DNA from: Lama guanicoe | Taxonomy: Eukaryota | Length of the DNA stretch: 54,588 nt | Reading direction: 5' to 3' | Assembly (NCBI GenBank): GCA_013239625.1 | Contig: MU053691.1 | Span: 8,588-63,175, forward strand | Shown here: positions 18,701-49,829 of the stretch, piece by piece | Numbering within the stretch: the first letter of the stretch is position 1 | Layout: every line of letters starts with the position of its first letter | The notes under the pieces: model-generated | Databases searched by the model: none | What the model was told of the DNA's origin: nothing | What the model saw: the letters and a program-made list of their open reading frames with translations, nothing else | Translations under genes and position numbers: made by a program

Positions 18701-21415
18701 TTAACCTGGAAAAAGATATTTAAGACAAATTAACACAGCCAGAGGAACCTGTGAGAAAATAACAAAAGGCATAACATCCCTGCCATCAGAGTCCCAGAAG
18801 GACAGCAGAAGTTCAGTACTGAAAAAATATAATTCAAGATATAACATAAAAAACTGAAATCAATCAGAAAAAATGGCATATTACCTGTAAGAGAAGAACA
18901 ATTTGAATGACTAACCAGAAACTACAGAAGGAAGAGGCATGATATTTTTCAGTTGCTGAAAGAACAGAACTGTCAGCTTGAAAATCTATATTTAGTAAAA
19001 AAGACCCTAGGCATGAAGGCGAAATGAAAGTGTTCTCAGATGAAGGAAAACTAAGAGAATTTGTTGCCAGCAGATTTGCTGTAAAGGAATTGCTAAAGGA
19101 AGTTCAGATTGAAGGGAAATGATACCAGAAAATAATAGTATCTTAGGGATAGTAAGCAAGAGAAATGGTAATTGTCATGGTATATATAATAGGCTATTCT
19201 CTTAAGTTCTTAAAAATGCAGTTGATGGTTGAAAACAGAAAAAATAATAACACTATCTGCAGGTTTTTTAATGTGTACAGATGTAATATATAATACAACT
19301 ACAACCTAAAGGGGTTAAAGAGATTCACATGGTTTTAAGACAAAATTCCACTTAAGGATGAAAGTATTCATTTCAATGTGACTGTGAAAAGTTAAATATG
19401 TAAACTGTAATTTTCAAAGAAACCATCAAAAACTATTTATACAAGACATACTAAAAAAACACAGTCAATAAAGTTAAATGATAAAAGTATTCAAATAACT
19501 CAAAATGAAGGCAGGATTTGGGGAAACAAAGGAAAAACAGAGGAAAAACACATAAATCACTTAATAAAATGGTAGATCTAAATCCAAACATATCAATAAT
19601 TACATTAATTTTAAATGACCTAAACTCATCATTTAAAAGACAGACTCTCACAATAAATATGGTAAGATTCTACTTATAAGAGTTATCTAGAACAGCCAAA
19701 CTCTTAGAAAAAGAAAGTAGAATGGTGGTTGTCAGGAGAGGAAAGTTAGCTTCCTAAGGAATATAGAATTTGAGTTTTGTAGGATGAAAAAATTCTAGAG
19801 ATGTGTTACATAACAATATGCATTTGGTTAACACTTTTACACTGTACACTTAAAATGGTTAAGAGGATAAACTTTATGTATCTATAACACAATAAAACAT
19901 ACTGAAGTTGTCAAAATAAAAGAAACATCCAAACAAATAAATAAAGCATAGTCAAACTATATGTGGTTTTTGAGAAACCAATGTCAAATATAATATCAGT
20001 GGTTATAAATGAAAGAATGATAAATGATATAGCATACAAACACTAATCAAAGTAATACTCAAGTGAATATATTAATACAAAGAAGTATACTTCAAAGAAT
20101 GAAAATTACCAAGAATAAGAACATTGCATAATAAACTTATCAGTTTACCAAGAAGATGTAGATTCCTAAATGTACATATACCTAAAAAAAGAGTTTTAAA
20201 ATGCACAGAATAAAGAGCGTGAAGTTAAGGAGAAATAAAGAAACCTACAAATATAATTAGAGACTTCAACCCTCCTCTATTAGTACTGGATTCAACTAGG
20301 AAAAAGAAAGCCAGCAGGGATGTGGAAGAACTGAGCATCACCATTAACTAAAAAGGTAAAATTTACAATTACAGAATGCTTTACTGAACAGTAGCAGAAT
20401 ATACATTATATATATTGTATTCAAAATATACAAAAAAATTCAACAATAAGAACACAATCTGATTTAAAATGAACAAGAGATCTGAACAGACAACTACTGA
20501 AGATTTTCAGACAGTAAATCAACATGTAAAAAATTGTTCAACACCATTTGTTGAATGAAAATTGAATGAAAATTAACAAAGCGATGGGTTATCTCTACAC
20601 AGCTTTCAAAGAGACTAAACTAAAACCTGACAGTACCAGTTGCTGGTGAGGATGCAGAGTAACAGGAACTCTCATGCAAGGCTGCTGGGAATGGAAAATG
20701 GTAGAGCCACTTTGGAAGACAATTTAGCTGTGTTTTACAAAGTTCATAGTATTACCATAAAATCCAGCAACTGCACTCCTAGGTATTTAAATATTTCAAA
20801 GCTATATACATATAAAATTCAACACATAAATGTTTACAACTGCTTTACTCAATACTACCAAAAACTAAAAGCAACCAGGATGTCCTTGAGTACATGAATG
20901 GGTAAGCAAACAGTGGTACATCCGTACAATGGAATATTACTGAATAAGAGAATGAGCCATCAAGACACAAAAATACACAAATGTATCTTGAATGAATATC
21001 ACTAAGTTAAAGAAACCCATCAGAAAAGGCTACATATTGTACAATTCTAGTTATATAGCATTCTGAATAAAGCAAAATGATATATATTATAAACAGATCA
21101 GTGGTTGCCAGGAGTTCAGGGAACAAGAGGAAGGGATCAGTTTCCTAGGTGAAGCTTTGAGGATTTTTTAGCTTGGTGAAACCATCTGCATAATTTAAAA
21201 ACAGGTACATGTTATATGTGTGTCAAAACCCACAGAACTTTACAGCACAAAAACCAAATATTGATGTATACAAGTTAAAAATAGCTAGGAGATCAGTGTA
21301 TCCCAGAATAGAATGTAGAATGTGACTAAAGAATCTAACTATATACAAAGGTATGTAAAACCTGGCTGAAGGCAAAAAGACCTAAGAAATTTTGATATGA
21401 GTGGAATCTGTGAGA
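15703..21415 (+). mobile_element. Old L1M-type LINE-1 relic(s): 5'/ORF1 region, ORF2 start, 3' end; host of the CDK16 retrocopy; includes a nested L1M 3' end at ~19650-19900
   Basis: A-rich decayed L1 motifs, for example GAACTGAAAAATTTAATAACTGAAG, CATCAGAGTCCCAGAAGGA, TTCTCAGATGAAGGAAAACTAAGAGAATTTGTTGCCAGCAGA, GGATGCAGAGTAACAGGAACTCTCA. Subfamily not determined. Confidence 0.8.
16523..18563 (+). pseudogene. CDK16: Processed pseudogene of CDK16 (PCTAIRE-1 kinase) with 5'UTR, whole CDS and short 3'UTR
   Basis: Intronless colinear match to CDK16: [110 protein letters not shown]. Ends ...GTEF-TAA at 18333-18335. The initiator position is GCG (16837-16839). Multiple frameshifts and stops. Flanked by diverged TSDs AAAGAAGGATCAGAAGG (16506-16522) and AAAGAAAATCAAAAGG (18564-18579). 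Confidence 0.96.
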
Positions 21416-24400
21416 TTAACCCAACACAATTAACAAAATGGTAATAAGAATATACATACTGATAATTACATTAAATATAATGGGATTAACTGCTCTGACC
21501 AAAAAATGTACAGTGACGGACTGGATACAAAAAGAAGACGGATGTATATGCTGTCTACAAGAGACCCACTTCAGACCTAGAGACACATGCAAGCTGAAAG
21601 TGAGGGGATGGAAAAACAAAAATTCCATACAAACAGAAACCAAAAGAAAGCTGGAGTAGCAATACATATATCTAACAATATTGATCTTAAAATAAAGACT
21701 GTTATGAGAGTCACAAAAGGATTCTACATAATACTCAAGGTACCGGTCCAAGAAGGTATAACAACTGTAAATATATACACACGCAACAAAGGAACACCTC
21801 AATATATAAGGCAATTTTTAACAAACATAAAAGGAGAAATCAACAATAACACAATAATTATGAGTAACCTTAACACCTACTTATATAAATGGACATCCAG
21901 ACAGAAACCAATAAGGAAATACAGACCCTAAATGACACATTAGACCAGATGGACTTAATTAATATCTAAGAGCATTCTAATTGAAAGCAACGTAACACAC
22001 CTTCTTCTCAAATGCACATGGAATAAACTCCAGAATCTATCACATATTGGATCACAAAGCAAGCCTCAGTAATTTAAGAAAATTGAAATCATACCAAGAA
22101 CCTTTTCTGATCACAAGGCTATAAGGTCAAAAATCAACTACAAGAAAAAAAAATGCAAAAACTGCAAATACGTGGAGGCTAAACAATATGCCACTACACA
22201 ATCAATGAATCACTGTAGAAATCAAAGAGAAAATTGGAAAATACTTTGAGATCAATGAAAATGAAAACACAACAATACACAAGTTTTGAGATGCAGCAAA
22301 AACAGTTCTAAGAGGCAAGATTATAGCAATACAAGTCTACCTCAGGAAACAAGAAAAATCTCAAATAAACAACCTAAACTTAAATGTAAAGCAGCTAGAG
22401 AAAGAGGAGCAAAGAAAACCCAAAGCTAGTAGAAGAAAAGAAATCATAAATTTCATAGCAGAAATGAATGAAATTAAGACAAAAAAATCAATGAAACTAA
22501 AAGTGGGTTCTTTGAAAAGATGAATAAAATTGATAAACCTTTAGTTAGACTCATCAAGAAAAAAGGGAGAGGGCCCAAATTAATAAAATAAAAAAGGAGA
22601 AGTCATAATCAATATCACAGAAATACAAGGGATCATAAGAGGCTACTATGAGCAACTATATGCCAACAAAAAGGACAACCTAGGAGAAATGGACAATTTC
22701 TTACAAAGGTGCAATTTGCCAAGGCTGAATCAGAAAGAAATAGAAAATATGAGTAGACCAATTACCAGTACTGAATTAAGTCAGTAATTTTAAAATATCC
22801 ACAAGCAAAGGTCCAGGACTAGTTGGCTTCACGGGTGAATTCTAACATAAATTTACAGAAGAGTTAACATCTAACCTTCTGAAACTATTCCAAAAAATTA
22901 AAGTGGAAGGAAAAATTTCAAATTCATCCTATGAGGCCACACTCACCCTGATACCAAAACAAGACAGATATCAAAAAACAAGAAAATCACAGGGCAATAT
23001 AACTTATGAGTATAGATGCAAAAATCCTCAATAAAAACTAGCAAATGGACTCCAACAATGCACTAAGAGGATCATATGCCATGATCAAATGAGATTTATC
23101 CCTGGGATACAAAGATTTTTCAATATCCACAAATCAATCAATGTGATGCATCACATTAACAAACTGAAGAATAACAACTGTGTGATCATCTCAATAGGTG
23201 CAAAAAAGCTTTTGATTAAAGTCAATATCCATTTATGATGAAAACTGTCCAGAAATGGGGTGCAGATGAAACATACCTCAACATAATCAAGGCCATATAT
23301 GACAAACACACAGCTAATATCACACTTCATGATGAAAAGGTCAAAGCATTTCCTGTAACATCAGAAACAGGACAATGATGCCCACTCTCACCACTTATAT
23401 TCAACGTAGTTTTGGAAGCCTGAGCCATAGCAATCAGAGAAGAAAAAGAAATAAAGGGAATCCAAATCGGTAAAGAAGAAGTAAAACTGTCATTGTTTGT
23501 GGATGACATGGTACTATACATGGACAACCCTAAAGAAGCAACCAGAAAACTACTAGAGCTCATCAATGAATCTGGTAATGTTGCAGGATACAAAATTAAT
23601 ATACAGAAATCAGTGGCATTTCTATCCACTAATAACCAAATAGCAGAAAAAGAAATTATTTAAGAGAACTCTGGAACAACATGAAGCTTACTAATATTCT
23701 CATTATAGAGGTACCAGAAAGAGAAGAGAGAGAGAAAGAACCTAAGATATTTTTTAAAGAGATACTAAACCCAAAGAGGAATACACCAAGGCACATAGTC
23801 ATTAAACTGAGAAAAATTAAGGAGAAGGAGAAAATATTAAAATTAGCAAGAGAAAAGCAACAAATAACATACAAGGGAACTCCCATAAGGTTATAAGCTG
23901 ATTTTTCAGCAGAAAATCTACAGGCCAGGAGAGAGTGGCAAGATATATGCAAAGTGGTGAAAGGGAGAAACCTACAACCAAGAATACTCTGCCCAGGGAG
24001 GCTCTTATTCAGATCTGATGGCAAATTCAAAAGCTTCACAGATAAGCAAAAGCTAAAAGAATTCAGCACCACCAAACCAGCTTTACAACAAATGTTAAAG
24101 AAACTTCTCTAGTCATCAAACTATAAGAAAAGGACAAAAAGAAGAAAGGGGGAAAAAAAGATCTTCAAAAGATTACTTTGTCAGTTTAGAGTCTTTTATG
24201 GTTTCATATACATTTTGGAATTGTTGCTTTAGTTCTGTGAAAAATATTGTGAGCACTTTGACAGGGGTTGCGTTGAATCTGTAGATTGTTTGGGGTAGTA
24301 CAGCCATCTTGATAATGTTGATTCTTCCAATCCAGGAGTATAAGATATCTTTCCATTTCTTTGTATCATCTTCAATTCCCTTCATCAATGTTTTATAGTT

Positions 24401-26785
24401 TTCAAAGTATAGGCAACCTCCTTGGTTAAGTTTATTTCTAGGTACTTTTGATGCAATGGAAATGTTTATGCCAGTTATAAAATTCTGGTTTTTGAAGTGG
24501 AAAAAAAGTGAATGAAGGGCTGCAAATGGCAAAATATCTTTCATTCTTATGGGTGAGTTGTATTCCATTACATATACATGCTGCATCTTCTTTTCCTTTC
24601 ATCTATTGATGTGCATTTATAATGCTTTCATACCTTGGTAGTTATAATTGGCAATTATAAAAATAATGTTGCTGTCAATAGCAGGTGTATTTATTTTTTT
24701 CAATTAATTTTTATTTTGTGGATGGCTTTATTCCTTTGATAACAATGTAAGTTTAAATAGCTAAAGCTCTAAACCTTCTTAGAAACAATGAAAAAAATAT
24801 ATATGCAAATTTAAAAACAATATGCAGTATTTTGGGTATATATATTTACATGCAATACATTGTACATGTGCAGTCAAATTGTAACAATTCTACCTAATAA
24901 TACTGAAAAATGGGAAAAAAGGAATTAAGGAAATAATACCATTTACCATTGTACTAAAACATATAAAATACTTAGGACTAAACCTAACCAACTAGACAAA
25001 GGACCTGTATTCTGAAAACTGTAAGACACTGAGGAAAGAAATTGAATTCACTTAAGTGATGGAAAGATATAGCATGTTCTTGGATTGGAAAAATCAATAT
25101 TGTTGAAATGGCCATAATTCCCAAGGCAATATACAGATTCAGTGCAATCCCTATCAAATTACGAATGACATTTTTCACAGAGTTGGAGCAAAAAAAAATG
25201 TTAAAAATTATATGGAAACAAAAAAATGCCAAATAGCAAAAACAATCTTAAAAGAGGAGAATGGAGCTGGGAGAATCACCCTCCCTGGCTTCAGGCTATA
25301 ATACAAAGCTACAGAAATCAAAACAGTATGGTACTGGCACAAAAACAGACACCTAGATTAATGGAATAGAATACAAAGTCCAGAAATAAACCCTTGCACC
25401 TACAGTCAATCAATCTATGACAAAGGAAGCAACAACACACAATGGAGAAAAGACAGTCTTCAACAAATGGTGCTGGGAAAACTGGGCAGCTACCTATAAA
25501 AGACTGAAATTAGAACATTCTCTTCACCATGTACAAATGTAAACTGAAAATGGATTACAGACCTGAATGTAACACCATATACTATGACATTTCTAGAGGA
25601 AAACATAGGCAGAACACTCTTTGACATAAATAACAGCAATATTTTTTATGACCAGCTCCTAGAGTAATGGAAATAAAAGCGAAAAATAAATAAATGGGAT
25701 CTAATTAGACTTAAAATGTTTTGTACAGTTAAGGATATCATAAATAACATGAAAAGACAACCTACAGAATGGAAGAAAATATTTGCAAACGATGCGACTG
25801 ACAAGGGACTAATTTCCAAAACATACAACCAACACATACAGCTTAATATAAAAAAATAAGCAACCCCATCAAAAAATGGACAGAGGACCTAAGTAATCAT
25901 TTCTCCAAAGAAGACATCCAGATGGCCAACAATCCCATGAAAAAATGTTCAATATCACTAATTGTAAGAGAAATGCAAATCAAAACTACGATGAGGTATC
26001 ACCTCACGTCAGTCAGAATGAGCACCTTTAAAAATTCCACCGATGATAAATGCTGGAGAGGAAGTGGAGAAAAAGGAACCATCATACTGTCGGTGGGAAT
26101 GTAAACTGGTGCAGCCATTATGGAGGACAGTATTGGGAGTAGTCAAAAAAATTAAAAAAGACTTGCCATATGATCAAGCAATCCCACTCACGGGTGTATA
26201 TCTGGAGAAAAGTATATGTTGAAAAGATGCATGCACCCCCAATGTTCACAGCAGCACTATTTACAGTAGCCAAGACATGAAAACAACCCAAATACCCATT
26301 GACAGATGACTGGATAAAGAAGATATGGTATGCATTTATATACATATACATACATACATACATACACACAATGGAATACTACTAAGCCATAATAATGAAT
26401 AAAATAATGCCATGTGTAGCAGCATGGCTGGACCTGGAGAACACAACTCTAAGTGAAGTATGCCAGAAACAGAAAGAAAAATGCCATATGATAGCACTTA
26501 TATGTGGAATATTAAAGGACCCAAATGAACTCATCTACAAAACAGAAACAGACTCACAGACATAGAGAACAAATTTATGGTTATCAGAGGATAAAGCTTT
26601 TGGGAAGGGACATATTGGGAATTCAAAATTTGCCCCTCTTGGGGAGTGATGGACATATTAGCTATCTTAATTGTGGTAGTGGTTTCATTGGTGTATACCT
26701 CTATCAAAATTCATCAAATTGTACATCTGAAATATGTGTAGTTTCCTGTACAGGAATCATGCCACAATAAAGGTGTTAAAATAAC
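21416..26785 (+). mobile_element. LINE-1, 5'-truncated, decayed near-complete ORF2 plus 3'UTR (interrupted by the 23659-24915 element)
   Basis: Endonuclease start MVIRIYILIITLNIMGL...ICCLQETH (21438). RT motif region TTGTTTGTGGATGACATG (~23494-23511). C-terminal [12 protein letters not shown]. 3'UTR with AATAAA near 26766. Confidence 0.93.
23659..24915 (+). mobile_element. Composite ORF1-only (HAL1-like) L1 derivative, copy 1, inserted in L1 ORF2 with TSD
   Basis: L1 ORF1 3' part (…NPKRNTPRHIVIKLRKIKEKEKILKLAREKQQITYKGTPIRL…, stop TAG 24110-24112), A-rich spacer, antisense ORF2 fragment (~24168-24455), linker, antisense ORF2-end fragment (~24519-24690), private tail. TSD AAAAAGAAATTA (23647-23658) / AAAAAGGAATTA (24916-24927). 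The host ORF2 resumes exactly after the second TSD. Confidence 0.85.
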
Positions 26786-26789
26786 TACA

Positions 26790-28095
26790 GATGTATATCT
26801 TTCATGAATATAAATACAAATCTTCAATAAAATATTAGCAAACTAAATCCAAAACTATATTAAGACAATATTAAACCAGGGTTTATCTAAGAAATTCACA
26901 CAGTTCAATTTTGAAAACTGATAAACATAATGCACAATTTTAGCAGACGAAAGAAAAGCCACATCATAACACCAATTGATGCAGAACAAGGATATGATAG
27001 AACTCGACATCTATTCATGATGAACATTTCTTAGTAATCTTCCTCAACCTGAAAAAAGAGTATTTTAAATACTTTCACTTGACATATTTAATGGTGAAAG
27101 GCTGAGTATATTTTCATTGTGTTCAACAAATCAAGGATGTCTTCTCTCACCAATCCTATTCAATATCATACTATAAGCAGCCACCAGTATTAATAACATT
27201 ACAAAGATAAATGAAAGGCACACAGATTGTAAAGGGAGAAATGAAACTATGCCTATAAGCAGATGAGATGAGTGTATTCATACAAAACCCAAGGAACCTA
27301 CACTACTGAAAGCTTCCTAGAACTGATAAGTTCAACAAGCCACAGTATACAAGTTCAACACACAAAAATCAAACATATTTCTACATACTAGCAATATGTA
27401 TTTGGAAGCAGATTTTTTTAAAATGCCATTTACATTATTTTAAGTTATCAAATACCCAGGAATAAATACAACATAATATGTGCAGGGTTTGTTTGTTGAA
27501 AATCACAAATTGATGATGAAAGAAAAGAAGACCTAAATAAATACTGTGTCCATGGATTGGAAGAATCAATACTGTAAAGGTGTCAATTCTTAAAATTTAA
27601 TTCAATTTGAATAAAAACCTCAGCAAGATTTATACTAGATATAGACTGATTCTACAATGCAAAACATTATAATGCAAAGGATTAGAACAGTTTAAACAAT
27701 TTTGAAAAAGAAAAATAAAATTGGACATACTACTTGATTATAAGAATTACTAAAAAGCGAGAGTAATAAAGACATCATGGTATTGGTAAACATATAGACA
27801 TACATCAATGGAACAGAATAGTGAGTCCAGAGATGGACTCATTCAAATATGGTCTATTGATTTTGTGAAAAGCTGCAAAGACAGTTCAATGGAGAAATGA
27901 TAAACTTTCAACAAATGGAACTGAGGCAACTGGGTACCTATATGAAAAAGGAAAATAACCTTAAACCTAATTCAAGTCAGTCAAAATGGATTGTCATTCT
28001 AAATGTAAATGCAAAGCTATAAATCTTTTAGAGGAAAACCAAGGAGAAATTCTTAAATTCTTAGGGTTAGGCAGAGATCTTAGATATACAATATT
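26790..28095 (+). mobile_element. Old L1M ORF2 fragment
   Basis: Decayed ORF2 motifs: AATAAAATATTAGCAAACTAAATCCA, CTCTCACCAATCCTATTCAATAT, CATGGATTGGAAGAATCAATACTG, TTCAACAAATGG. Confidence 0.85.
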
Positions 28096-29029
28096 TATCT
28101 ATTGACTCCAATTCCTCCTTGATTGAGGGTTGCTCCCTGGACATGGGGCATGGTGGGGTGGTGGTGTGTTAAATCATTCACAGACTTTTCCACTGGGATG
28201 AGCAATTTCCTAGAATACCAGAGAAAGAGTTTGGGTAGAGAAGGAAAGAGATACACATGCTTGAGGTGGGAAACATGAATGGGAAAGATCTGCCACAGCT
28301 GAGTGCAAACCCAGAATTGGGATGAGAATCTCCTACAGGAAAGAGGTAAAGGCAAAGTGGTAAGGGATGCAGTCGATCAGGTGGGCCTGTCATTGTCCAC
28401 CAGTATTGCCTCTGTGACTCTAGTGGCTCTCAAGGCCAGAGTCATGGAGACTATGATCTACTGAGGATGACTCTATATAAAAATACTGTCAGAACCTTTA
28501 GAATGCTCTTGCATCTGGGAGGTGAGGAGCGATTTCTGAGATTACTCACTGGAGGGAAGACATCACATGCATGTTGTCCTCTCTCTGTTTTATTGTTGTC
28601 TACACTAAGAGTAGAGTAGACTTTGGAACAGTACCCAGTGACAGTTAAAGCAGGCATAGCCTTTGATTGAGCAATTGCACTTGGGAGATGCTTCCTACAG
28701 AACGTAAGGCCCAGTACATAGGAATCTATGTGCAGAGATTTGTGTCCCAGGCACAGCGTCCACACTAGTAAATTGTTGATCATGATGCATGTTTCTTGAG
28801 GCCATTGTGGGGATGAAAGCTAATATATTAGAAATTCATTTTGCCAATTAGTTATCTATATTAAGACACATGGCAATGTGGAAACACTAAGATTTCCAAA
28901 AGAGGACTTCAGATTGACTACTCTGATTCCTCACACGTCATCCTCTGCACTTGGTGTGTGTCACAGCACAGCAGTCAGCAGGAGGAGCAAGGGAAACAGC
29001 AGAGACAGATGTGACAGTCAAGGGGAGGG

Positions 29030-30124
29030 GCCTGTGCTTCCTCAGCCCAGAATGGAGTCACCCTGGAGGGCTACCTCCTGGAACTCTGGCTCAGTAATTT
29101 ACTGATTTTTCTCCTGAGTATTAATTAACCCCAGAAAGTGAGGGGTAAGAGCAAAAAAAGAAAAAAAATTCTCTGTATCTTGGAGATGGAGACTGAGCCC
29201 TGGCTGTGTCCTCAGGGATCCTGGGCTTTGGCCATTACCTGCCTGTCTCTAGGGGCTTTTTATCTCATGGAAGCAGGTCTCTCAGTGAGTGCTTCTAGGG
29301 AGCTAGGAGACTCAGGAACAAGTTTTCAGGAACCAATTCTAGCCATAGATTATTCTAGGATCCTTTTTAAACATCCCATAGTAGGTCAGAGACAGGTGGG
29401 TTCCAAGGGAATTATGTTAACTAAGAGAAAAATCTACAGGCTGAATGAGGGCATGCCAGGGGAAGTGGAGGCCCCAGAGGACTGTCCGCTCGGGGAACTA
29501 TATGCCTTTGTGCTAATGATGCCCCAGGTTAGTGAGCAGGCTTTTGCAAGAGCCTGGTTTGCAGACTTAAAGTACAAGCCTGTGCTTCCTCAGCCCAGAA
29601 TGGAGTCACCCTGGAGGGCTACCTCCTGGAACTCTGGCTCAGTAATTTACTGATTTTTCTCCTGAGTATTAATTAACCCCAGAAAGTGAGGGGTAAGAGC
29701 AAAAAAAGAAAAAAAATTCTCTGTATCTTGGAGATGGAGACTGAGCCCTGGCTGTGTCCTCAGGGATCCTGGGCTTTGGCCATTACCTGCCTGTCTCTAG
29801 GGGCTTTTTATCTCATGGAAGCAGGTCTCTCAGTGAGTGCTTCTAGGGAGCTAGGAGACTCAGGAACAAGTTTTCAGGAACCAATTCTAGCCATAGATTA
29901 TTCTAGGATCCTTTTTAAACATCCCATAGTAGGTCAGAGACAGGTGGGTTCCAAGGGAATTATGTTAACTAAGAGAAAAATCTACAGGCTGAATGAGGGC
30001 ATGCCAGGGGAAGTGGAGGCCCCAGAGGACTGTCCGCTCGGGGAACTATATGCCTTTGTGCTAATGATGCCCCAGGTTAGTGAGCAGGCTTTTGCAAGAG
30101 CCTGGTTTGCAGACTTAAAGTACA
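29030..30124. repeat. Exact direct tandem duplication, 547-bp unit (29030-29576 and 29578-30124), period 548
   Basis: Both copies run GCCTGTGCTTCCTCAGCCCAGAATGG...GCAGACTTAAAGTACA. No difference seen by eye. ORFs at 29138 and 29686 translate identically up to the junction. A single A at 29577 separates the copies. Confidence 0.95.
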
Positions 30125-30167
30125 CGCTGTTGATTATTTGGAGATGTGTAGAGCTTATCAGGCCTTA

Positions 30168-30279
30168 CTCCACAACTCTCATGTAACATTTATGCATCTT
30201 ATTCCATCTCCCATCACTCTCCACCACTCTCATGTAACATTTATGCATCTTATTCCATCTCCCATCTCTCTCCACCACT
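30168..30279. repeat. 51-bp minisatellite, about 2.2 copies
   Basis: CTCTCATGTAACATTTATGCATCTTATTCCATCTCCCATC recurs with ATGTAACATT at 30181 and 30232. Confidence 0.9.
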
Positions 30280-31589
30280 TCTCTGGCTATGAGGATGACA
30301 TGGCCCTTTGAAAAACCTAAAGCTAGAGAAAATGCAATGAAGTTAGTGACATGAGGTGAGATAAACTGAACTGTGCTGGAGTTAATTTTATGAGAGCCTG
30401 TGTCTGTACAGAGAGGCAGAGAGACGCAGTGGATGTGGAGTAGGACAACAGAGGACACTTCTCTATCACTTTTTGTCTTTGTGTCACTGTGTTCAGTGGC
30501 TTTGCCTCTGAAGTCTGTCTCATGTGAAGAAGCTTGAAACCACAGAGGAGGCTAGCACATCTTTATTCCCTTTACCTTTGAGATAAAGGCTATGATTTTG
30601 AAAGCTGGCATACTGGGATTTATCATCTGGATAACGTTTTCAAATAACATTATTATAATTGAACATAATAGAAAAAATAGTTTTGAAATAAACTAACATG
30701 TAGTAAATATAGCTTTACAAAAAGTGTTGTTATTTGAAGTATTTAGAAAAATACTCAGCTCACAATATATCATAAAATAAATTCTTGTTGAATTAGAGTC
30801 AAATATGACAATGAGATCCTAGAAAAGTGTGATGACTAATTCATCTCTTAATGACAAATAATTTAAACACAAAAGTGAAGAATAAGAAGGAAGTGAAGGA
30901 AAAGGAGAAATAGTGAGATGATAGATTTAACTACATAAAATGTTAAACTTCTGTATATTGAAAATTCTTGGGAGCATAGGAGAGAAAGAATTAATATTAT
31001 TAATATGTAAAAAAGTTCATCCAAGTCAACAAGTGAAATATAAACACTAAAAAAATGGTCAAAGGATAGGAATAGATAATGACAAAAGAAGAATTTTAAG
31101 CAATAATACACACATGATAAATCCAATTCATTCTAAATTATCTAGAAGAGAAAGACCCAGATGTTGCCTATACCATGGCAAAGTCCCAGATGTGCACTAG
31201 TATCCAGTACTGATGAGGGTGCAGAAAAATGGGCTTTATAATGCACTGCTTTGTAGTTGGGGGCACAAGTGACCCTATGGAGGGGACCTGCCACTGGAGA
31301 AACAGAGAAGAACTGTGGGGCAGATTACTTCTAAGAGGAAGGGAAAAGAAAGGAATTGGGACATACCTGCTCAGCTTTTCCTTCAAAACTCACCAATAAC
31401 ATAAGTTCATCCCCAACCTTCATCTCTATGGGAGAAGAGTGAATGAAGTTGAAAGAAAGAAATGTGTTACAACTACAGGAGACTGCATAGAAAGAAGCAT
31501 CAGGAATTGGGAAGAAATCCCTCATTTCAACAAGCATATTCTTTTTTCTTTCAATTGTATAACTGCCTGTATTAACTATCTACGGTTGA

Positions 31590-32730
31590 GAAACTTCTAT
31601 TTTGAAATAGGGAAGATCAAGAGAATGAGAAAACAAGCCACAGATTGGGAGAAAATATTTGTAAAAGACATATCTGATAAAGGACTGTTATCCAAAATAT
31701 ACAAAGAACACTTAAAATCCTAAAATACAGAAACAAATAACACAATTTTTAAAATGGGCCAAAGACCTAAAGAGATAACTCACTAAAGGAAGTGAACAGA
31801 TGACAAATAACATATGAAAATATGCTCCACATCATAAGTCATTATGGAAATGCAAATTAAAACATCAATTAGAGACACTACACATCTATTAAAATGGCCA
31901 AAATCTGTAACACTGACAATATTAAATATTAACCAAGATGATGTAGAGTAACATGAAATCTCATCCATTGCTGGTGGGAGTTTAAACTGCTGTAGCCACT
32001 TTGGAAGACAGTCTGACAGTTTCTTATAAAACTAAACACTCTTATTCAATCCAGAAATGGTATTTACCCAAAGAATTTGAAAACTTATATCTACACAAAA
32101 ACTTACATGCAGACATTTAAAGCAGCGTTATTCATAACTCCCAAAACTTGGAAGCAACCAAGATGTCTTCTAATAGGTGAATAAATAATAAACTATGCTA
32201 TATCCAGACAGTGGAATATTATTCAACACTAAACAAATGGGGATGCCAAGCCATGCAAGGACCTTAAATGCATATTACTAAGTGAAAAAAGCCAATCTAA
32301 AAAGGCTACTTACCCCACAATTCCAACTATATGACATTTTGGAAAAGGCAAAACTATGGAGACAGTAAAAATACCAGTGGGCTCCAGGGCTCGGCAGAGG
32401 GGAGGGATGACTAGGTGGAGAACAGAGGATTTTTAGGGCATTGAAAATACTCTGTATGACATATTTCACTATACATTTGTGCAAAGCCATAGAATATACA
32501 ACACCAAGAGTATATGGTAATGTGAACTATGAACTTTGAGTGGTTTTAAGGTTTCAGTGCAGGTTCATCAACAGTAACAATTGTACCGCCCTGGTGGGGA
32601 ATACTGATAACAATATGTTATGCATCTGTGGGGGTATATGGGAAGTATCTGTACATTCTCCTCATTTTCCCTGTGTGGACCTAAAACTGTCCTAAAGACA
32701 TGAATTCATAATTTTAAAAATAAAATTAGA
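31590..32730 (+). mobile_element. L1MC-like ORF2 end and 3'UTR
   Basis: RMRKQATDWEKIFVKDISDKGLLSKIYKE reading, followed by an L1MC-type 3'UTR. Confidence 0.85.
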
Positions 32731-32849
32731 AAAATATAACAAAGCCAAGGTTAAATATTTTATGGATTAATAAAACTGTATGTTTCTAGAAACATTGATA
32801 GATTGCTAGAAACAAAGATAGATGCAAAATAGATTGCAAAGAAAGACTG

Positions 32850-33545
32850 ATATCAGAGACCGCAGCCCACGGTCAAGCACAGAAGCACCGCCACGATCTG
32901 GAAGCGGTAGTGGGGAGATTTACTCCCCTGGGCAGCAGCCCTATCAGAGCCAATGGGTAAACACCTCTCCTGACGGCTCTCACACAAGCAACTGGAAGAG
33001 ACACTCTATAAGTTCCTCTGAAGGTTCCCATGGGATCAAGTCTTAGTTGCCCTCAGTCTTTACTCCTTCCATCATTCTTGTCTGAAGTCTGATTCGGCCG
33101 GGATAACAAACAGCCATAGGCTGGGCAGCTTAAATGACAAACATTTATTTCTCACAGCTCTGGAGGCTGGAAAGACCAAAATCAAGGCACTGGAAGATTT
33201 TGTATTTGGTGAGAACCCACTTCCTGCCTCATAGATAATCATCTCTTGTGCCCTCACATGGTGGAAAGGACCAGAGAGATAACATGGGTCTCTTTAAAGA
33301 GGGCCCTGGTCCCACTCATGAGAGTTCTGCCCTATGACATAATCATCTCCCAGGGGACCTAACTGCAAATAGTATCACATTGGATATTTGGCTTTAGAGT
33401 ATGAATTTTGGGGGGACACAAAGATTCATTCCATAGCAGATCTCCCAGAGGCCTCCTTTCCACTATCTGGGATTTTTTCCAGCAAATTACCTGTATACAT
33501 GTTCTTACTCAATCTCTGCTTTTGACAATACCCCAAGTGAAATTA
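32850..33545 (+). mobile_element. ERVL LTR16-like relic split by an MLT1 LTR
   Basis: CAGAGCCAATGGG...GGTTCCCATGGGATCAAGTCTTAGTTGCCC before the MLT1, and TCTGGGATTTTTTCCAGCAAATTACCTGT...CTCTGCTTTTG after it. Confidence 0.5.
33079..33438 (-). mobile_element. MaLR solo LTR (MLT1A-like)
   Basis: ACATTTATTTCTCACAGCTCTGGAGGCTGGAAAG...ATCACATTGG...ATGAATTTTGGGGGACACA...CATAGCA. Confidence 0.85.
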
Positions 33546-33609
33546 AGTTTAATCTTCCTTTTTAATTCCAGGAGAGAATTTCCTTTCCACTACTCTGCAG
33601 TATTTGCTA

Positions 33610-34265
33610 ACAACATAAATGACTTGAAAGAAGATTCTTTCCCAGACCCTCCATATAATAGCCCGGACTGGATGACAACCTGAATTTGGTCTTGTGAGAC
33701 CCTAAGCAGTAAACCTTGTTGAGCCCATGCTGACTTCTGGTCAATAGAATTGTATTGTTTTAAGCCACTGAATTTGTGGTACCTGCTTTTCTCAATGATT
33801 TTGAGTCAACAAACAGGTTGAGAGATACAAGTTGTTCTTAATATCCTGCCAAAGTTCATGTCCTCAGAACCTCAGAATGTGACCTTATTTGGAAGTAGGA
33901 TAATTGCAGGTTTAGTTAAGATGAAGTCATACTGAAGCAAAGCAGACTTTTAATCCATTATGGCCGGTGTTCTTATGAAAAGAAAGGAGACACAGACACA
34001 CAGGGAGAAGCCCATGTCAAGATGGGTGCAAAGTTTGGAGTGATATATCTACAAGCCTAAAAGACCAAGGACTGTCAGCTACAACAGAACCTAAGAGAAA
34101 GGATGCAAAAAAACTCTCCCCCAGAGCCCTCAGAGCAAGAACATGGCCATGTGCACATCCTAATTTCAGATTTCTAGCCTCCAGAAATGTGAAAAAATAA
34201 ATTTCTGTTGTTGAAAGTCACCTAGTTTATGGTACTTTACTACAGTAACCCTAAGAAACTACTAG
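33610..34265 (+). mobile_element. Two MaLR LTR pieces (MLT1-type ~33610-33790; MLT1C-like ~33830-34265)
   Basis: TGTTTTAAGCCACTGAATTTGTGGT; AGAACCTCAGAATGTGACCTTATTTGGAA...TTCTAGCCTCCAGAAATGTGAAAAAATAAATTTCTGTTG. Confidence 0.8.
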
Positions 34266-34299
34266 AGAACCTGTGTTTTCCTGCCTTTTTAAGGTGAAC

Positions 34300-36311
34300 T
34301 TTGTTTTATTTTTTAATTAAAATATAGTTGATTTGCAATATTATATTAAAGTGTACAGCATAGTGATTCAATATTTTACATATTATATCCATTAAGAATT
34401 ATTACAAAATAATGGATATATTTCCATGTGGTGATCAATATAACCGTGTTATTTATGTATTTTATACATAGTAATCAATATCTCTTTATCTCATATTCCA
34501 ACCTTGCCTCACCCGCCTTCCTTCACCCCACTGGTGACCACTAGTGTATTCTCCATGTATCTGAGTCCATTTCTGTTTTGTTATATGTATTCATTTGGTA
34601 TTTAGATTCCACACATAAATGATAACATAGGGAATTCATGTTTCTCTGTCTGACTTATCTCACTAAGCGCAACACTCCCTAGGTCCGTCCATGTTGCTGC
34701 AAATGGCAGAACCGCATTGCTGTTACAGCTTCTCCACACAGTCATGAGTAGAGGGGTGTTTGGAGAGCTTCTGTATCTTGGCTCCCTTAAGTAATGCTGC
34801 TGTAAACATGGAGGTGCATGTATCTTCTGCAATTAGCTGTTTTGTTTTCATTGGATATATACCCAGGAGAGGAATTGCTGGACCGTGTATTAGTTCTACT
34901 TTCAGTTTTCTGAGGAACCTCTATGCTGTTTTCCACAGTTGCTGCACCAATTTACATTCCTTCTAAGAGTGTACACGTTTCCTTTTCTTCACATCTTCAC
35001 CAGCATTAATTTATTGTTTTTGATGATAGCCATTCTGACAGATGATTGATGCTCTATGATGCTGAGAATCTTTTCATGTGCCTGTTGGCCATCTGCATTT
35101 CTTCTTTGGAAAAAGTATATTCAAATCTTTTGCTCATTCTTTTAAGTGGGTTTTTTTTATATTTGGTTTTATGAGCTGTTTATATATGTTAGAAATTAAC
35201 CCCTTATCAGGCAAATTGTTTGCAAATATTTTCTCTCATTCAATAGGTTGTGTTTTTTTTTTGTTAACATTTTTCTTTACTGTGCAAAAACTTTCAAATT
35301 TGATTAGATCCCATTGGTTTATTTTGCTTTTATTTATTTTGCCTTAGGAGACAGATCCAAAAAATTATTGCTCTAAATTTATTTCAGAGTATGTATATGT
35401 TCTGTATATGTTGTCTTTTAGGAATTTTATTATTTGAGTTCTTACATTTAGGTCTTTAATCCATTTTGAGTTTATTTTTTTGTACATGGTGTGGGGGTAG
35501 TGGCCTAATCTCATTCCTTTATATGCCCCTTTCCAGTTTTCCCAGCACTACTTATTGAAGAAACTATCTTTTCTTCGTTGTACATTCTTGCTTCCTTTGT
35601 TGTTGATTAATTGATCATCACTGCCTGGATTTATTTCTGTTTCATTGATTTGTGTCTGTTTTTGTGCCAGTACCATGTTCTTTTGATTACTGTAGCTTTG
35701 TATTGTAGTCTGAAGACAGGGAGAATGATAGCCCCAGCTTTGCACTTTCTGTTTTTCAAAAGTGCTTTGGCAATTTGTGACCTTTTATGGTTCTGTATAC
35801 ATTTTAGAATTATTTGTTCTAGTTATGTGAAAAATATCATGGGTGTTTTAACAGAGATTACATTCAATCTGTAGATTGCTTTGGGTAGAATGGATATTTT
35901 AACAAAAATTCTTCCATTCCAAGAGCATAGGATGTCTTTCCATTTCTCTGTTACCATTTTCAAATTCCTTCATCAATATTTTAAAGTTCTGAGAGCATAG
36001 GTCTTTCACTTTTCTACTTTATTCTTATGTATTTTATTATTTTTGATGCAAATGTAATCGGACATTTTCTTAATTTCTCTTCCTGAGAGCTCATTATTAG
36101 TGAAAAGCAACAGATTTCTGTATATTAATCTTGTATCCTGAAAACTTTACTGAATTTGTTTATTAGTTCTAATATTTTGATAGATACTTTAGGGTTTTCT
36201 CTATATATTGTGATGTCATTTGAAAATAAGGACAGTTTTACTTCATCCCTTTCAATTTCTATGTCTTTTCCTTTTCTTGTCTGATTGCTGTGGCTAGGAA
36301 TTCCAGTAGTA
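34300..36311 (-). mobile_element. LINE-1, 5'-truncated, minus strand; its 5' end abuts the broken PRSS47 exon
   Basis: T-rich tail at ~34300-34314 followed by antisense 3'UTR and ORF2 (minus reading RDEVKLSLFSNDITIYRENPK, LPFAATWTDLGSVALSEISQTEK). Confidence 0.92.
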
Positions 36312-36507
36312 CGTATGATGCAGGAGGTGAAGTTCACAGGACTAGAGCAGCTGCAACATGCCTATGTCATTCCCAAAGGGATGACACTTATCAGAGTCTG
36401 GGTATATGATAATATGGCTCACAGATATCTTCTGGGTGTGCCTGGTGTGCTGGTACAGCTGGGGGTTTCCTAACAAAACCTGGTAATTCTCCAGGATGTG
36501 AGATTTT
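36312..36507 (-). pseudogene. PRSS47: PRSS47-like exon 4 (catalytic Asp, NDIGML), frameshifted and truncated by L1
   Basis: Acceptor ctcctccag|A AAA TCT. Stop plus 1-nt frameshift at 36344-36341. The sequence switches to L1 ORF2 (TACTGGAATTCCTAGCCACAGCAATCAGACAAG) at about 36311. Confidence 0.9.
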
Positions 36508-37230
36508 CTGGAGGAGGAAAGACGCATTGTCACCATCATGTCTGAGTGTGAGCTAGTTCTCTTTCCCTGAGTCCTCTTCTAACTGCCCACATGCCTCTGG
36601 ACCCCTCTAACCCACATGCCAGGCAGCTTTTGCCTCCCCATTTTTAATGGTCAGGAGCCCTTCTTTCTTGAGGCTACTTGATACTCTGCTTACAACCTCA
36701 GCATATGGCTTCTTCATCACACCCTAGAATTGGAGGAGCATATAATCTTAGGGCTGGATGGCGGGGAAGGGGGGTCGTCAAATGAAGGCCCTGTGCTTGT
36801 ACACAGGAGGAGTTCTGGTTCAGTCTCAGCTCTGACTTCACACTTCCCAGGGCTCCCCACATTCCACCTTCTGGGCCCGCACTTTTCCCGACCCGTCCTT
36901 TCTTTAAACATCTTCCTGCCCAAGGGCTGCTTGTCCACTAGTTATAAGCACTCACAAAAGATTTGTTAAATGAGCAAATGAAGACAGGAAAAGGAACCTT
37001 GCCTTGTTCCCTGAACACAGGTGGTGAAACTTCCCACCTCCCTGAGCTTGCATGCGTGGCTCCTCCACCCGGACACCCTCCCCCGTGCCCAACTCCAGCA
37101 AACACGCAGGGCCTGACCTCCCCCCCACCGTGTGGTCTGTCCTTCTCACCCATGTTGGGCTTTCTCTTCTGACAGGGTAGAGACAGGGTGAGGTGGGGTC
37201 TTGCTGCCCTCAATGCCACAGAACAGAGAG

Positions 37231-37819
37231 NNNNNNNNNNNNNNNNNNNNNNNNNNNNNNNNNNNNNNNNNNNNNNNNNNNNNNNNNNNNNNNNNNNNNN
37301 NNNNNNNNNNNNNNNNNNNNNNNNNNNNNNNNNNNNNNNNNNNNNNNNNNNNNNNNNNNNNNNNNNNNNNNNNNNNNNNNNNNNNNNNNNNNNNNNNNNN
37401 NNNNNNNNNNNNNNNNNNNNNNNNNNNNNNNNNNNNNNNNNNNNNNNNNNNNNNNNNNNNNNNNNNNNNNNNNNNNNNNNNNNNNNNNNNNNNNNNNNNN
37501 NNNNNNNNNNNNNNNNNNNNNNNNNNNNNNNNNNNNNNNNNNNNNNNNNNNNNNNNNNNNNNNNNNNNNNNNNNNNNNNNNNNNNNNNNNNNNNNNNNNN
37601 NNNNNNNNNNNNNNNNNNNNNNNNNNNNNNNNNNNNNNNNNNNNNNNNNNNNNNNNNNNNNNNNNNNNNNNNNNNNNNNNNNNNNNNNNNNNNNNNNNNN
37701 NNNNNNNNNNNNNNNNNNNNNNNNNNNNNNNNNNNNNNNNNNNNNNNNNNNNNNNNNNNNNNNNNNNNNNNNNNNNNNNNNNNNNNNNNNNNNNNNNNNN
37801 NNNNNNNNNNNNNNNNNNN
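37231..37819. other. Assembly gap (589 N) hiding the rest of PRSS47-like exon 3
   Basis: Run of N. Confidence 1.
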
Positions 37820-37894
37820 CTTGCCACGGCCTCAGGCCTGCCGCCACATCCCGGCCGCCGTACATCCTCCCTGTCACCTTGGGCTTCCCGTACA
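37820..37894 (-). pseudogene. PRSS47: PRSS47-like exon 3, visible part (activation peptide; His-containing part lies in the N gap)
   Basis: cacag|TG TAC GGG AAG CCC AAG ... CCG TGG CAA. Propeptide Cys is replaced by Tyr and the mature N-terminal Ile by Met. Confidence 0.85.
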
Positions 37895-38731
37895 CTGTGG
37901 GGATGCCCCTGCCTCCTATGACAGAGACACTGGTAGTGCCCCAGATGCCACTACCAGGGAGGCCCTGTATACTTCATAGATGGGAAACCAAGGCCAAGCG
38001 TCCAGAGGCCTGGCCACAATGCCAGGGTGCTACTGAGAACTGGACAGCACAGCACAACCGAGCAAGCCCTTTGGGGATGAGGGCTCAGTAGCCTGGTGGG
38101 CAGGGCAGGGGGACCAAGGGCAGCCACAGCAGGTGACAGCAGCATCTCCAGGGTGACAGACATCCCTGAGGGAGCCTGCCAAGGGCTGGGCCATCACAAC
38201 CATCACGTCCCTCGCTCAACACACCTCAGGGCCTGCTCTGCAGGTCAAAGAACTACAGGCCTGGAAGCTTGCCAGTATTACTTGCTCAAGGTCATGGCTG
38301 CTAAGGGCTCATGCCCCCTCCATGTCATCCCAGTATCTCAGGGAAATAGGTTCACAGGCAGAAGTCTGTGTTTCTGTGTGACCTGAGGAAAGTCACTGCC
38401 CCTCTCTGACTCAGGACCCTCCATTTCTAAAAGTGGGAGAGGGCCAATGAAGACAGCCCTGGCTCTAGGACCCCCACTTGGGAGGGCAGGGTTGCACCCC
38501 GGCCCCCTGAGAGTGGGCCTCCTGGCCTAGGGCCTGTGCTCCCAGGTCTCCCAGGGAAGTGAGACCCCCAGGTCCGCACTAAGGGCCACTTAGTCAGCAG
38601 TCCTGGTGCTTTCCTCCAGCCAGCCTCCCAGCCTCAGGGCCAGACCCTGCTACCTGCCCCATTCCACAGCCCCACAAAGGTCCTGGGGTGGTGCCCACCC
38701 AGAGGCCCCACGGTGGGGGCCTCTGACTCAC

Positions 38732-38758
38732 CTGTGTTAAGGGGGGTCTCTGGGCTGC
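38732..38758 (-). pseudogene. PRSS47: PRSS47-like 27-nt micro-exon 2
   Basis: Strong polypyrimidine acceptor cttctctctgcccttccctccaaccag and donor ACAG|gtgagt. Phase 1/1, in frame with exons 1 and 3. A tiny second exon is typical of tryptase/testisin-type PRSS genes. Confidence 0.75.
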
Positions 38759-38958
38759 CTGGTTGGAGGGAAGGGCAGAGAGAAGATGAGATTCAGTGAC
38801 TCAGGGCACCCAGGCACTGGTCACAGCCATGCCCCCCTGAGACCCTCTTGTGTAACCCATCTGAGCCCCACCCTGAAGGCCCAATGCACCTGCGGCTCTA
38901 GAAGCGCACCGCTGCCCATCAGGAGACAGGGCACCACCCTCCACCGGCCTCCCCACAC

Positions 38959-39085
38959 CTGGAGCCCGGCTGGGGGCAGCCGAGGCCCTGGGGGAGGGCC
39001 CTCACAGCTCCAGGGCGGCCGTGGGTGGCAGCAGCAGCAGCCAGAGGAGGGCCCCAGTCTGGCCTCAGCCTTTTTCCATGCCCAT
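38959..39085 (-). pseudogene. PRSS47: PRSS47-like exon 1 (signal peptide) with two in-frame TGA
   Basis: ATG at 39085 (second ATG at 39079). Hydrophobic core ALLWLLLLPP. TGA at 39067-39065 and 39004-39002, likely CGA->TGA CpG decay. Donor CCAG|gtgtgg, phase 1. Confidence 0.7.
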
Positions 39086-39214
39086 TTCCAAGGCTGCTGA
39101 CCCCCACCTTTCCCTGGCCTGACCCAGCCCTGAGTCTGGCCCCTGAGCCTGGGCCCTGACCCTTCCATGACCCTGGCTTTGACCCTGCCTGAGCCCAGCC
39201 CTGATCCCATTCTG

Positions 39215-39547
39215 ACTTTATTAACTTTTTAAACAGCTTATTGAGGTATGATTTATATACCATGAAGTTCACTTATTACAAGGGACAATTCAATGATTTT
39301 CAGTACATTTTATTTGTTTATTTTTATTTAAATAAACTTTTTATTTTAGAATCATTTTACATTTATGAAAAAGTTGCAAAGACAATGCAAAGAGGTCCCC
39401 TATCCCCTTCAACCAGTTTCCCCTAATATTAAGATCTTATATTACTATGGCCCATTTGTCACAACTGGTGAGCCAATAGTGACACATTATTAACTGAAGT
39501 CCTTTCTTTCTCTCTTTTTTTAATTTTTTAAAGTTTAAGGTGTACAT
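39215..39547 (-). mobile_element. Stacked antisense L1M 3'-end fragments
   Basis: T-rich starts AACAGCTTATTGAGGTATGATTTATATACCATGAAGTTCAC and AAACTTTTTATTTTAGAATCATTTTACATTTATGAAAAAGTTGCAAAG. Confidence 0.7.
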
Positions 39548-40350
39548 TGATGGAGAAATCACAAGCTTCACAGATAAACAAAAGCTAAAACATTTCAGCA
39601 TCACTAAACCAACTTTACAAAAAATGTTAAAGGACATTCTCTAGTCATCAAACCATAAGAAAAGAGAACAAAAAGAAAGAGAAAAAAAAAAGACCTACAA
39701 AAGATTGCTTTGTCTGTTCAGGGATTTTGCAGTTCCATAAAAATTTTGGAATTAATTGTTCTAGTTCTGTGAGGAATGTCAGAAGTATTTTGAAGGGGGT
39801 TCTTTTGAATCTGTGTGTTGCTATGGGCAGTGTGGCCATTTAGATAGTGTTGACTCTTCCAATCCAAGAGCACAAGAAATCTTTACATTTCCTTGTGTCA
39901 TTTCAGTTTTTGGAGTATAGGTAACCCCCTTGGTTAAGTTTATTTCTAGGTATTTTATTGTTTGTGATGTAATGGAAATGTTTATGCCAGTCATAAAATT
40001 CTGGTTTTTGAACTGAAAAAAAAAAAAGGGGAATGAAGGGCCACAAATGGCAAAATATCCTTCTTCCTTATGGGTGAGCTGTATTCCATTACATATATAT
40101 ATGCTGCATCTTCATTATCTGTTCAAATATTGGTGTGCACTTAAGATGCTTCCTCATCTTGGCAACTTTAAATAATGCTGCTGTTAATGGTAGGGTGTAT
40201 GTATCTTTCTGAATTAATTCTTATTTTCTGGTTGGCTTTATTCCTCTGATAACTATATAAGTTAAAATAGCTAATGCTCTACACATTCTTAGAAACAATG
40301 AACAGTACATACATGTAAATTAAAAAATATATGTGCAGGGAAAAAAAAAA
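39548..40350 (+). mobile_element. Composite ORF1-only (HAL1-like) L1 derivative, copy 2, more 5'-truncated, polyA-terminated
   Basis: Same module order and junction sequences as 24016-24830: ORF1 stop TAG 39642-39644, TCATCAAACCATAAGAAAAG, antisense ORF2 ~39700-39975, GGAAATGTTTATGCCAGTCATAAAATTCTGGTTTTTGAA, GAATGAAGGGCCACAAATGGCAAAATATC, TTCTTAGAAACAATGAA. Ends with ATTAAA (40319-40324) and A10 (40341-40350). Confidence 0.82.
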
Positions 40351-40860
40351 GAAATGAGCTATCAAGCCATGGAAGACATGGAAGAAACTTAAAAGACATA
40401 TTACTAAATGAAAGAAGCCAGTCTGAAAAGGCTACCAACGGTATGATTCCAACCAAATGACATTCTGGAAAAGGCACAGATACAGAAACAGTAAAAAGAT
40501 GGTGGTTTCCAGGAGTTTGGGGAGAGGGAGGGAGGGATGAACAGATGGAGCACAAGGGATTTCTAGGGCAATGGAATTATTCTGTGTGATACTACAGTGG
40601 TGGCTACATGTCATTATGCATCTGTCAAAACCCATAGAACGTACCCCATCAAGAGTGAGCCCTAGTGTAAACTGTGGACTTTGGTGGATAATAATGTGCC
40701 CATTTTGGTTCATCGATTGCACCGAATATGCCACGCTGATGAGGGATCTTGAGGGTAGGGGAGTATATCCGTGTGGGTGGGGAGGGCTATGTGGGAACTC
40801 TGTATTTTCTGCTCATTTCTGGTGTGAAATTGAAACTGCTCTAAAAAAGTAAATCTTATT
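40345..40860 (+). mobile_element. L1MC-like 3' end
   Basis: AAAGAAATGAGCTATCAAGCCATG...GAAAGAAGCCAGTCTGAAAAGGCTA...GAAACTGCTCTAAAAAAGTAAA. Confidence 0.8.
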
Positions 40861-40914
40861 AGTAATATACATTTATATATATATAAACAAAACAAAACAA
40901 AAAGAGAAAGCATG

Positions 40915-49729: not shown

Positions 49730-49829
49730 GGGGAGGGTAAAGCTCAGTGATAGTGTGTGCTTAACATGCACGAGGTCCTGTGTTCAATCCCCAGTGCCTC
49801 CATTAGAAAGTAAGTAAGTAAAATAAAAC
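49730..49829 (+). mobile_element. tRNA-Ala-derived SINE head (camelid Vic-1-like)
   Basis: GGGGAGGGTAAAGCTCAGTGATAG (A box) ... TTAACATGCACGAGGTCCTGTGTTCAATCCCCAGTGCCTCCA (B box, tRNA-like 3' end), followed by an AAGT/AAAT tail. Confidence 0.85.

Follow-up and report, generated by a model that had tools for sequence, protein, structure and literature searches.

In our judgement it is likely that two stretches of a 54,588-nt segment of Lama guanicoe DNA (contig MU053691.1, positions 8,588 to 63,175; the whole segment is called the window) are decayed, 5'-truncated copies of one composite repeat derived from the L1 retrotransposon. The repeat would represent a family of the HAL1 type ('half-L1'), likely dead and probably camelid, that would have been copied in trans. 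Copy 1 lies at 23659-24915 and copy 2 at 39548-40350. In both, the end of sense open reading frame 1 (ORF1) is followed by inter-ORF spacer sequence, an antisense piece of ORF2 from just after the reverse transcriptase core (AS1), a linker, an antisense piece from the C-terminal end of ORF2 (AS2), and a tail. Each architecture motif listed in a preliminary description of this DNA was found at its place in both copies with identical junctions, and these junctions are shared by three copies when a carrier outside the window is included.

Architecture of the composite unit

The segments of the two copies and their immediate surroundings are as follows.

21410..26630 (+): host L1, decayed and 5'-truncated (ORF2 and 3' untranslated region (UTR)), split by copy 1; halves collinear with the L1s at 41536-43754 and 34739-36314; 5' limit read from the sequence
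23647..23658 (+): left target-site duplication (TSD) of copy 1, 11/12 identical to 24916-24927; control 24/5000
23659..24112 (+): copy 1, 3' part of L1 ORF1, 150 codons, ends in TAG; a single stop inside the frame, 25 codons deleted in frame following residue 35; PF02994 and PF17490
24113..24168 (+): copy 1, distal L1 inter-ORF spacer, joined directly to the ORF1 stop; by eye against passages of the pig L1 consensus (PMC6501411 supplement 1)
24169..24455 (-): copy 1, AS1, antisense L1 ORF2 just after the reverse transcriptase core; 74% to window L1; spacer junction at an endonuclease-type site
24456..24518 (+): copy 1, non-L1 linker, internal A-run at 24501-24507; also in the peptides P0003 and P0243
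24519..24706 (-): copy 1, AS2, antisense L1 ORF2 C-terminal end; 71% to window L1
24707..24827 (+): copy 1, tail common to copy 2; 84.7% identity
24828..24915 (+): copy 1, private 3' end, weakly like an L1 3' terminus (24780-24930 compared with four 3' ends)
24916..24927 (+): right TSD of copy 1 (11/12); host ORF2 resumes
39548..39644 (+): copy 2, last ~32 ORF1 codons with TAG; alignment to copy 1
39645..39700 (+): copy 2, inter-ORF spacer remnant; alignment to copy 1
39701..39971 (-): copy 2, AS1 with a 24-nt deletion common to P0003; sequence comparison
39972..40039 (+): copy 2, linker with A12 run at 40016-40027; 93.7% to the copy 1 linker
40040..40215 (-): copy 2, AS2; 82.6% to copy 1
40216..40350 (+): copy 2, shared tail with ATTAAA at 40319-40324 and A10 at 40341-40350; 84.7% to copy 1
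40346..40896 (+): old L1 3' end directly 3' of copy 2; 72% and 70% to the L1 3' ends at 32248-32748 and 20943-21238

In a global alignment, 24016-24835 and 39548-40345 were collinear through all junctions, with an ungapped identity of 83.5% over 769 columns and a Kimura two-parameter distance of 0.19. BLASTN of 24016-24827 against 39548-40338 gave 76.9% identity over 832 columns (E 6e-179). The copies lie ~15 kb apart in unrelated flanks, and copy 2 spans an inner part of copy 1; the earlier claim of diverged copies with unrelated flanks and different 3' ends was upheld. By segment, identity between the copies was 85.6% for the ORF1 end, 92.5% for the spacer, 78.5% for AS1, 93.7% for the linker, 82.6% for AS2 and 84.7% for the tail. 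AS1 was nominally the lowest, and the linker and spacer, which are short segments, were nominally higher.

AS1 and AS2 showed 71-76% identity to the ordinary L1 at 41520-43960. Sense ORF2 was present in neither copy, where the ORF2-derived pieces are antisense, partial and permuted. The linker and tail had been proposed to be non-L1 sequence common to both copies; a 31-mer of the linker has exactly two exact occurrences in the window and none in 100 shuffles. When linker and tail queries were run against the rest of the window, three of four stayed inside the shuffle range and no convincing match appeared; for the copy 1 linker the score was 32, the best shuffle reaching 31. Because the window, a piece of L1-rich mammalian DNA that has no tRNA genes, is densely packed with L1 debris, independent L1 fragments might come to lie in the same order by chance. 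This idea is vanishingly improbable and is refuted by the non-L1 linker at 93.7% and the tail at 84.7% identity, with the same junctions in three carriers.

In twin-primed L1 insertions, an inverted upstream piece lies head-to-head with the sense 3' end of the same RNA. In the unit, ORF1 and AS1 run in converging directions and AS2 does not follow the L1 order, the ORF2 pieces being permuted. Neither twin priming nor one internal deletion would account for this, and both were rejected.

On the minus strand of copy 1, 24173-24598 holds a 141-codon open frame fusing the ORF2 C-terminal piece, the linker and AS1. We do not regard it as a gene: copy 2 is frameshifted and stopped there, Pfam returned nothing, and the frame appears incidental.

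ORF1 and the inter-ORF spacer

In copy 1, 150 ORF1 codons survive; they are interrupted by one stop but by no frameshift. Pfam matches above cut-off on this part were PF02994 (profile positions 55-98 only) and PF17490, and the copy 1 ORF1 query reached up to 65% identity across its full length among the 120 ORF1 matches listed. What the preliminary description called an A-rich spacer does not belong to the unit alone: TCATCAAAC and the A-rich stretch are the distal end of the L1 inter-ORF spacer. In two passages of the pig L1 consensus (PMC6501411 supplement 1), TAG-TCATCAAACC lies distally in a long spacer between the two ORFs, by a by-eye count ~310 nt past the ORF1 TAG and ~80 nt ahead of the ORF2 ATG. 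Judged by eye against these passages, ~310 nt of proximal spacer are gone from the unit between the two TAGs, and the spacer remnant breaks off ~25 nt short of the ORF2 start.

Insertion hallmarks and boundaries

Both copies are 5'-truncated; a TSD was found in copy 1 only, and ATTAAA followed by A10 in copy 2 only. For copy 1, the preliminary description had reported a 12-bp TSD. A flanking repeat (23647-23658 / 24916-24927) is indeed present and was equalled by random host windows in 24 of 5000 trials, but it is identical at 11 of 12 positions and not perfect. The statement that copy 1 cleanly splits a host ORF2 held, as the empty site is gap-free and in frame when compared with a paralogous ORF2. 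At the 3' end, the comparison of 24780-24930 with four L1 3' ends gave one score that was matched by 1 of 500 shuffles, the other three being not significant. In addition, copy 1 AS1 (24210-24448) and host ORF2 (24965-25201) form an imperfect inverted repeat with 69.5% identity, the host part starting ~50 nt past the insertion site; this likeness may be either coincidence or homology-guided targeting.

For copy 2, the described ATTAAA and A10 are both there, but the A-run reaches into the first bases of an old, L1MC-like L1 3' end (40346-40896). This stretch may be either the target of copy 2 or part of the moved unit. If it were the true 3' end, the full unit would be longer and copy 1 would belong to a shorter or differently ended subfamily; such a unit would be compatible with a HAL1-type family and differ from it only in its boundary. 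Copy 2 continues unbroken into 40346-40896, and to the left of copy 2 there is no upstream part of the L1 concerned; both points speak for a longer unit. Set against this, ATTAAA and A10 lie right at the boundary, and copy 1 has a TSD yet lacks the 40346-40896 tail. We regard the longer unit as rather doubtful.

Further carriers outside the window

The minus-strand frame running across the junctions served as query against a protein collection and gave 3204 significant matches, 120 of which are listed. Among these, the NCBI peptide P0003, from a 1027-nt contig, reads AS2, linker, AS1 and antisense spacer in order and thereby crosses three junctions. P0003 scored 133 bits and all other listed matches at most 105 bits, apart from P0002, a tandem ORF2 repeat that was rejected as a family member. 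Its identity was 65% over 130 amino acids to copy 2 and 56% over 149 amino acids to copy 1. An 8-codon (24-nt) deletion in AS1 is common to copy 2 and P0003, and all 111 scorable L1 ORF2 matches among those listed are full length there. Seven residues are common to P0003 and copy 2 alone, and P0003 differs from the two copies by 15 and 12 of 50 amino acids. In a tree of 50 columns and 33 rows, which included 30 of 113 usable matches, copy 2 and P0003 formed a clade with support 98/95, and the three copies with P0006 a clade with 98/87. P0006, an ORF2 piece in the ordinary frame with the same starting point as AS1, is possibly close to the L1 donor of AS1.

These results bear on the possibility that copy 2 is an old local duplicate, or a gene-conversion product, of part of copy 1 and that no family exists. 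The 15-kb spacing would suit such an origin, as would a copy 2 that comprises the inner part only and has no TSD. The flanks, however, are unrelated, copy 2 retains 8 nt of L1-like sequence that copy 1 has lost, and P0003, which carries these junctions too, is distinct from both copies and falls with copy 2. Because P0003 has the 24-nt deletion with copy 2 only, at least two sources are indicated and no local duplication. A duplication limited to two copies, which the preliminary description had named as the case that would speak against a family, is therefore not what was found; this origin is largely refuted and highly improbable. Conversely, the proposal that the mosaic moved as one unit and forms a family gained support, in that P0003 carries the junctions outside the window and groups with copy 2.

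When 1.84 billion representatives were searched with a profile, there were 4 matches: P0003, P0243, and two repeat-rich proteins that were taken as chance. P0243 (ENA, 7 contigs, with the near-identical P0245) fits the linker at a cost of 13 over 57 nt, compared with a shuffle minimum of 19-20. This fit covers a frame absent from the profile, and the start of AS1 also fits. When the N-terminus of P0243 was compared with AS2, 45 of 60 shuffles were as good, and AS2 was thus not found in it. P0243 stays in L1 register where copy 1, copy 2 and P0003 have a 4-nt deletion; it may represent a short form that predates the others, a copy primed internally, or a sequence related to the source locus. 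This leaves at least three full carriers (copy 1, copy 2 and P0003) and one partial carrier (P0243).

In public sequencing runs, 14 of the 24 listed, under five organism labels, contain 54-64% of the words found in copy 1 plus flanks; as a matter of shared words, this would show only that the copy 1 locus is common to related species. Word shares in six RNA runs were 0.05-0.18, giving no evidence of expression.

Points against a HAL1-type family and the retrocopy alternative

Several observations count against a trans-mobilised HAL1-type family. With respect to ORF1, copy 1 lacks 25 codons in frame; none of the 120 listed ORF1 matches shares this deletion, most of them having a 24-26 residue insert there. 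The deletion falls in the RRM-type (RNA recognition motif) domain, and if it was already present in the source, the ORF1 protein (ORF1p) was probably crippled. Neither copy reaches the ORF1 start, the N-terminal half of ORF1, the 5' UTR or a promoter. With respect to insertion, the 3' ends of the copies differ, a clean poly(A) tail and a canonical signal are both missing from copy 1, and no textbook nick site is formed with the base that precedes its TSD. For copy 2, taken alone or with the downstream L1 3' end, the best repeats were 8 exact or 9/10 bases, none of them at the ends. With respect to the other carriers, P0003 and P0243 are known as peptides alone, and the 50-column tree does not set the three copies apart as a clade, as the ordinary-looking ORF2 piece P0006 nests inside. 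Scans for DNA patterns gave 11 matches in metagenomes, 1 in genomes and 7 in viral sequences, none past 27 nt, as expected by chance, and locus scans with P0003 gave 89 and 9 pattern matches, none of which was confirmed; all these collections are poor in mammalian DNA. A short-peptide search with the junction stretch produced no candidate.

Some of these observations also count in favour of another reading, in which the copies are processed retrocopies of a host or chimeric transcript with L1 debris in its 3' part, pseudogene-like and with neither an L1 promoter nor a working ORF1p. Such retrocopies would agree with the unseen 5' end, the 25-codon deletion, and 3' ends that differ and show no clear L1 3' terminus. 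They would account less well for an ORF1 frame with one stop and no frameshift across 150 codons, and for a sense part that stops just ahead of the ORF2 start, as it does in the pig element HAL1_SSc. Moreover, two source lineages imply that copies became sources, which would be easier with an internal promoter. We consider the retrocopy reading unlikely, and the HAL1-type family, with a promoter and full ORF1 that its source would have possessed, the likely one.

Relation to known elements

HAL1 elements were reportedly treated by Smit in 1999 and by Bao and Jurka in 2010. They are described as non-autonomous L1-derived retrotransposons (in passages of PMC5753468, PMC5786205 and PMC13756887) that arose several times in mammals (same passages of PMC5753468) and are possibly bipartite and made by internal deletion (in the part of PMC5786205 that treats them). 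The unit has an L1-derived sense ORF1, no sense ORF2, and multiple copies with shared junctions (three full carriers and one partial). Like HAL1, it occurs as dispersed 5'-truncated copies, one of which is flanked by a TSD. Unlike HAL1, ~480 nt of its 3' UTR are antisense ORF2, and it fits a truncated L1 with captured flank better than the internal deletion considered for HAL1 in that part of PMC5786205. Membership of the HAL1 class is likely.

The pig element HAL1_SSc (3016 bp according to PMC6501411 supplement 2; consensus in supplement 1) also combines L1 ORF1, a break within the inter-ORF spacer and a foreign 3' UTR (PMC6501411). However, HAL1_SSc keeps the proximal spacer and the unit the distal end, and the HAL1_SSc 3' UTR is unrelated by eye and ends in an ordinary L1 3' terminus. 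Three motifs of the unit gave no matches in a first search; of five linker and tail motifs in a further one, three gave none and two occurred once each in unrelated sequence. We rejected identity with HAL1_SSc, whose spacer break and 3' UTR are not those of the unit.

The gibbon LAVA element, as presented in passages of PMC5174737, is likewise composite and non-autonomous, and carries a module of antisense old L1 towards its 3' end; the module stems from one progenitor locus, and trans-mobilisation by L1 proteins was shown experimentally. LAVA differs in having an SVA-derived head and no ORF, and its origin is ascribed there to trans-splicing or SVA insertion. Further, 3'-truncated internally primed L1 insertions and 3' transduction (parts of PMC4859970) resemble the founding event and tail gain that we propose, but those truncated insertions are single ones, while here the product would have become a source element.

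Our literature search found no camelid-specific HAL1, and the main text of PMC8605555 does not contain 'HAL1'. Passages of PMC6726744 and PMC3183009 give only alpaca L1 and long terminal repeat families and name the HAL1s of other species. Among those listed of the 869 'hal1' matches in a dromedary table (PMC6675863 supplementary), the names are the pan-mammalian HAL1b, HAL1M8 and HAL1ME. The chances that the family is as yet undescribed seem about evenly balanced.

A possible founding event

We propose that the family began when an L1 complementary DNA (cDNA) stopped in the A-rich inter-ORF spacer, ~25 nt ahead of the ORF2 start, by internal priming or early polyadenylation. This truncated cDNA would have entered a 5'-truncated L1 ORF2 fragment of opposite orientation, using an endonuclease-type site there, and transcription from the L1 promoter would then have read through the flank (AS1, linker, AS2 and tail), making it the 3' UTR. 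Complete L1s may have supplied the ORF2 protein (ORF2p) that copied the composite RNA in trans. More than one source would have been active, copy 2 and P0003 stemming from one with the 24-nt deletion and copy 1 from one without it.

A junction motif accompanies this proposal. The minus strand of AS1 ends AATCTT; the corresponding bases are TCTT/AA for the host L1 and TTTT/GA for the L1 at 35 kb. An endonuclease-type site at the AS1/spacer break was found in two of three ordinary window L1s and not in the third; such sites make up 0.2-0.8% of positions on the sense strands of window L1s. Both site types, as well as 3'-truncated internally primed L1 insertions, appear in Table 1 of PMC4859970. 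AS1 is open in copy 1 and in P0003, which suggests that it was young when captured.

The 3' UTR may in addition have grown in steps at A-runs. An A-run in the linker, the A-run at the end of copy 2, a P0243 without AS2 and the differing 3' ends are consistent with such growth; with one peptide as its basis, the idea is a tentative one. A more far-reaching version would be a camelid half-L1 new to the literature whose 3' UTR lengthened through successive read-through events at relic poly(A) runs, with P0243 among older short forms and with a functional antisense part (AS1 and AS2, ~480 nt). We regard this version as very doubtful. The proposed function, in which element RNA pairs with helper L1 mRNA and captures nascent ORF2p or seeds small-RNA silencing of L1, has no support, and an AS1 that is the lowest-identity segment and lost 24 nt in one lineage gives it no backing. 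Divergence amounts to ~0.095 substitutions per site per copy, presumably corresponding to ~40 My under a mammalian neutral rate. The family looks long dead, with no sign of present function.

Other features of the window

A processed pseudogene of CDK16 occupies ~16520-18565 (+), CDK16 being the best PDB match for 17329-17439 (E 3e-16). This decayed copy lacks introns, begins with a GC-rich 5' leader, ends A-rich, and apparently sits within old L1 ORF1-like sequence. A 548-nt head-to-tail duplication (29030-29579 / 29578-30127) with 99.8% identity is either very recent or an assembly artefact, and a tandem repeat with a 51-nt unit and 2.2 copies occupies 30168-30279. At ~49731-50272, a tRNA-like short interspersed nuclear element (SINE; ~49731-49810) that resembles camelid Vic-1 is directly followed by an L1 3' end (49822-50272), possibly as a SINE-L1 chimera or a nested insertion. 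The SINEBase entry (PMC3531059) gives vic-1 as a camel SINE. L1 pieces at 43247-43590 and 54246-54586, and at 49828-49911 and 54503-54586, are 89-90% identical; they are younger and belong to a later wave than the host L1.

Implications

The class is known to have arisen many times, and the unit, whose founding junction is unusually easy to read, is best taken as a further, dead HAL1-like family. Its junctions offer a readable route to a half-L1 besides internal deletion, in which a truncated L1 would settle among antisense L1 debris, at an endonuclease-type site, and the flank would become the 3' UTR. If its consensus is missing, repeat maskers would break every copy up into four or five unrelated L1 fragments, some sense and some antisense, and such splitting would distort the counts and ages of camelid L1s.

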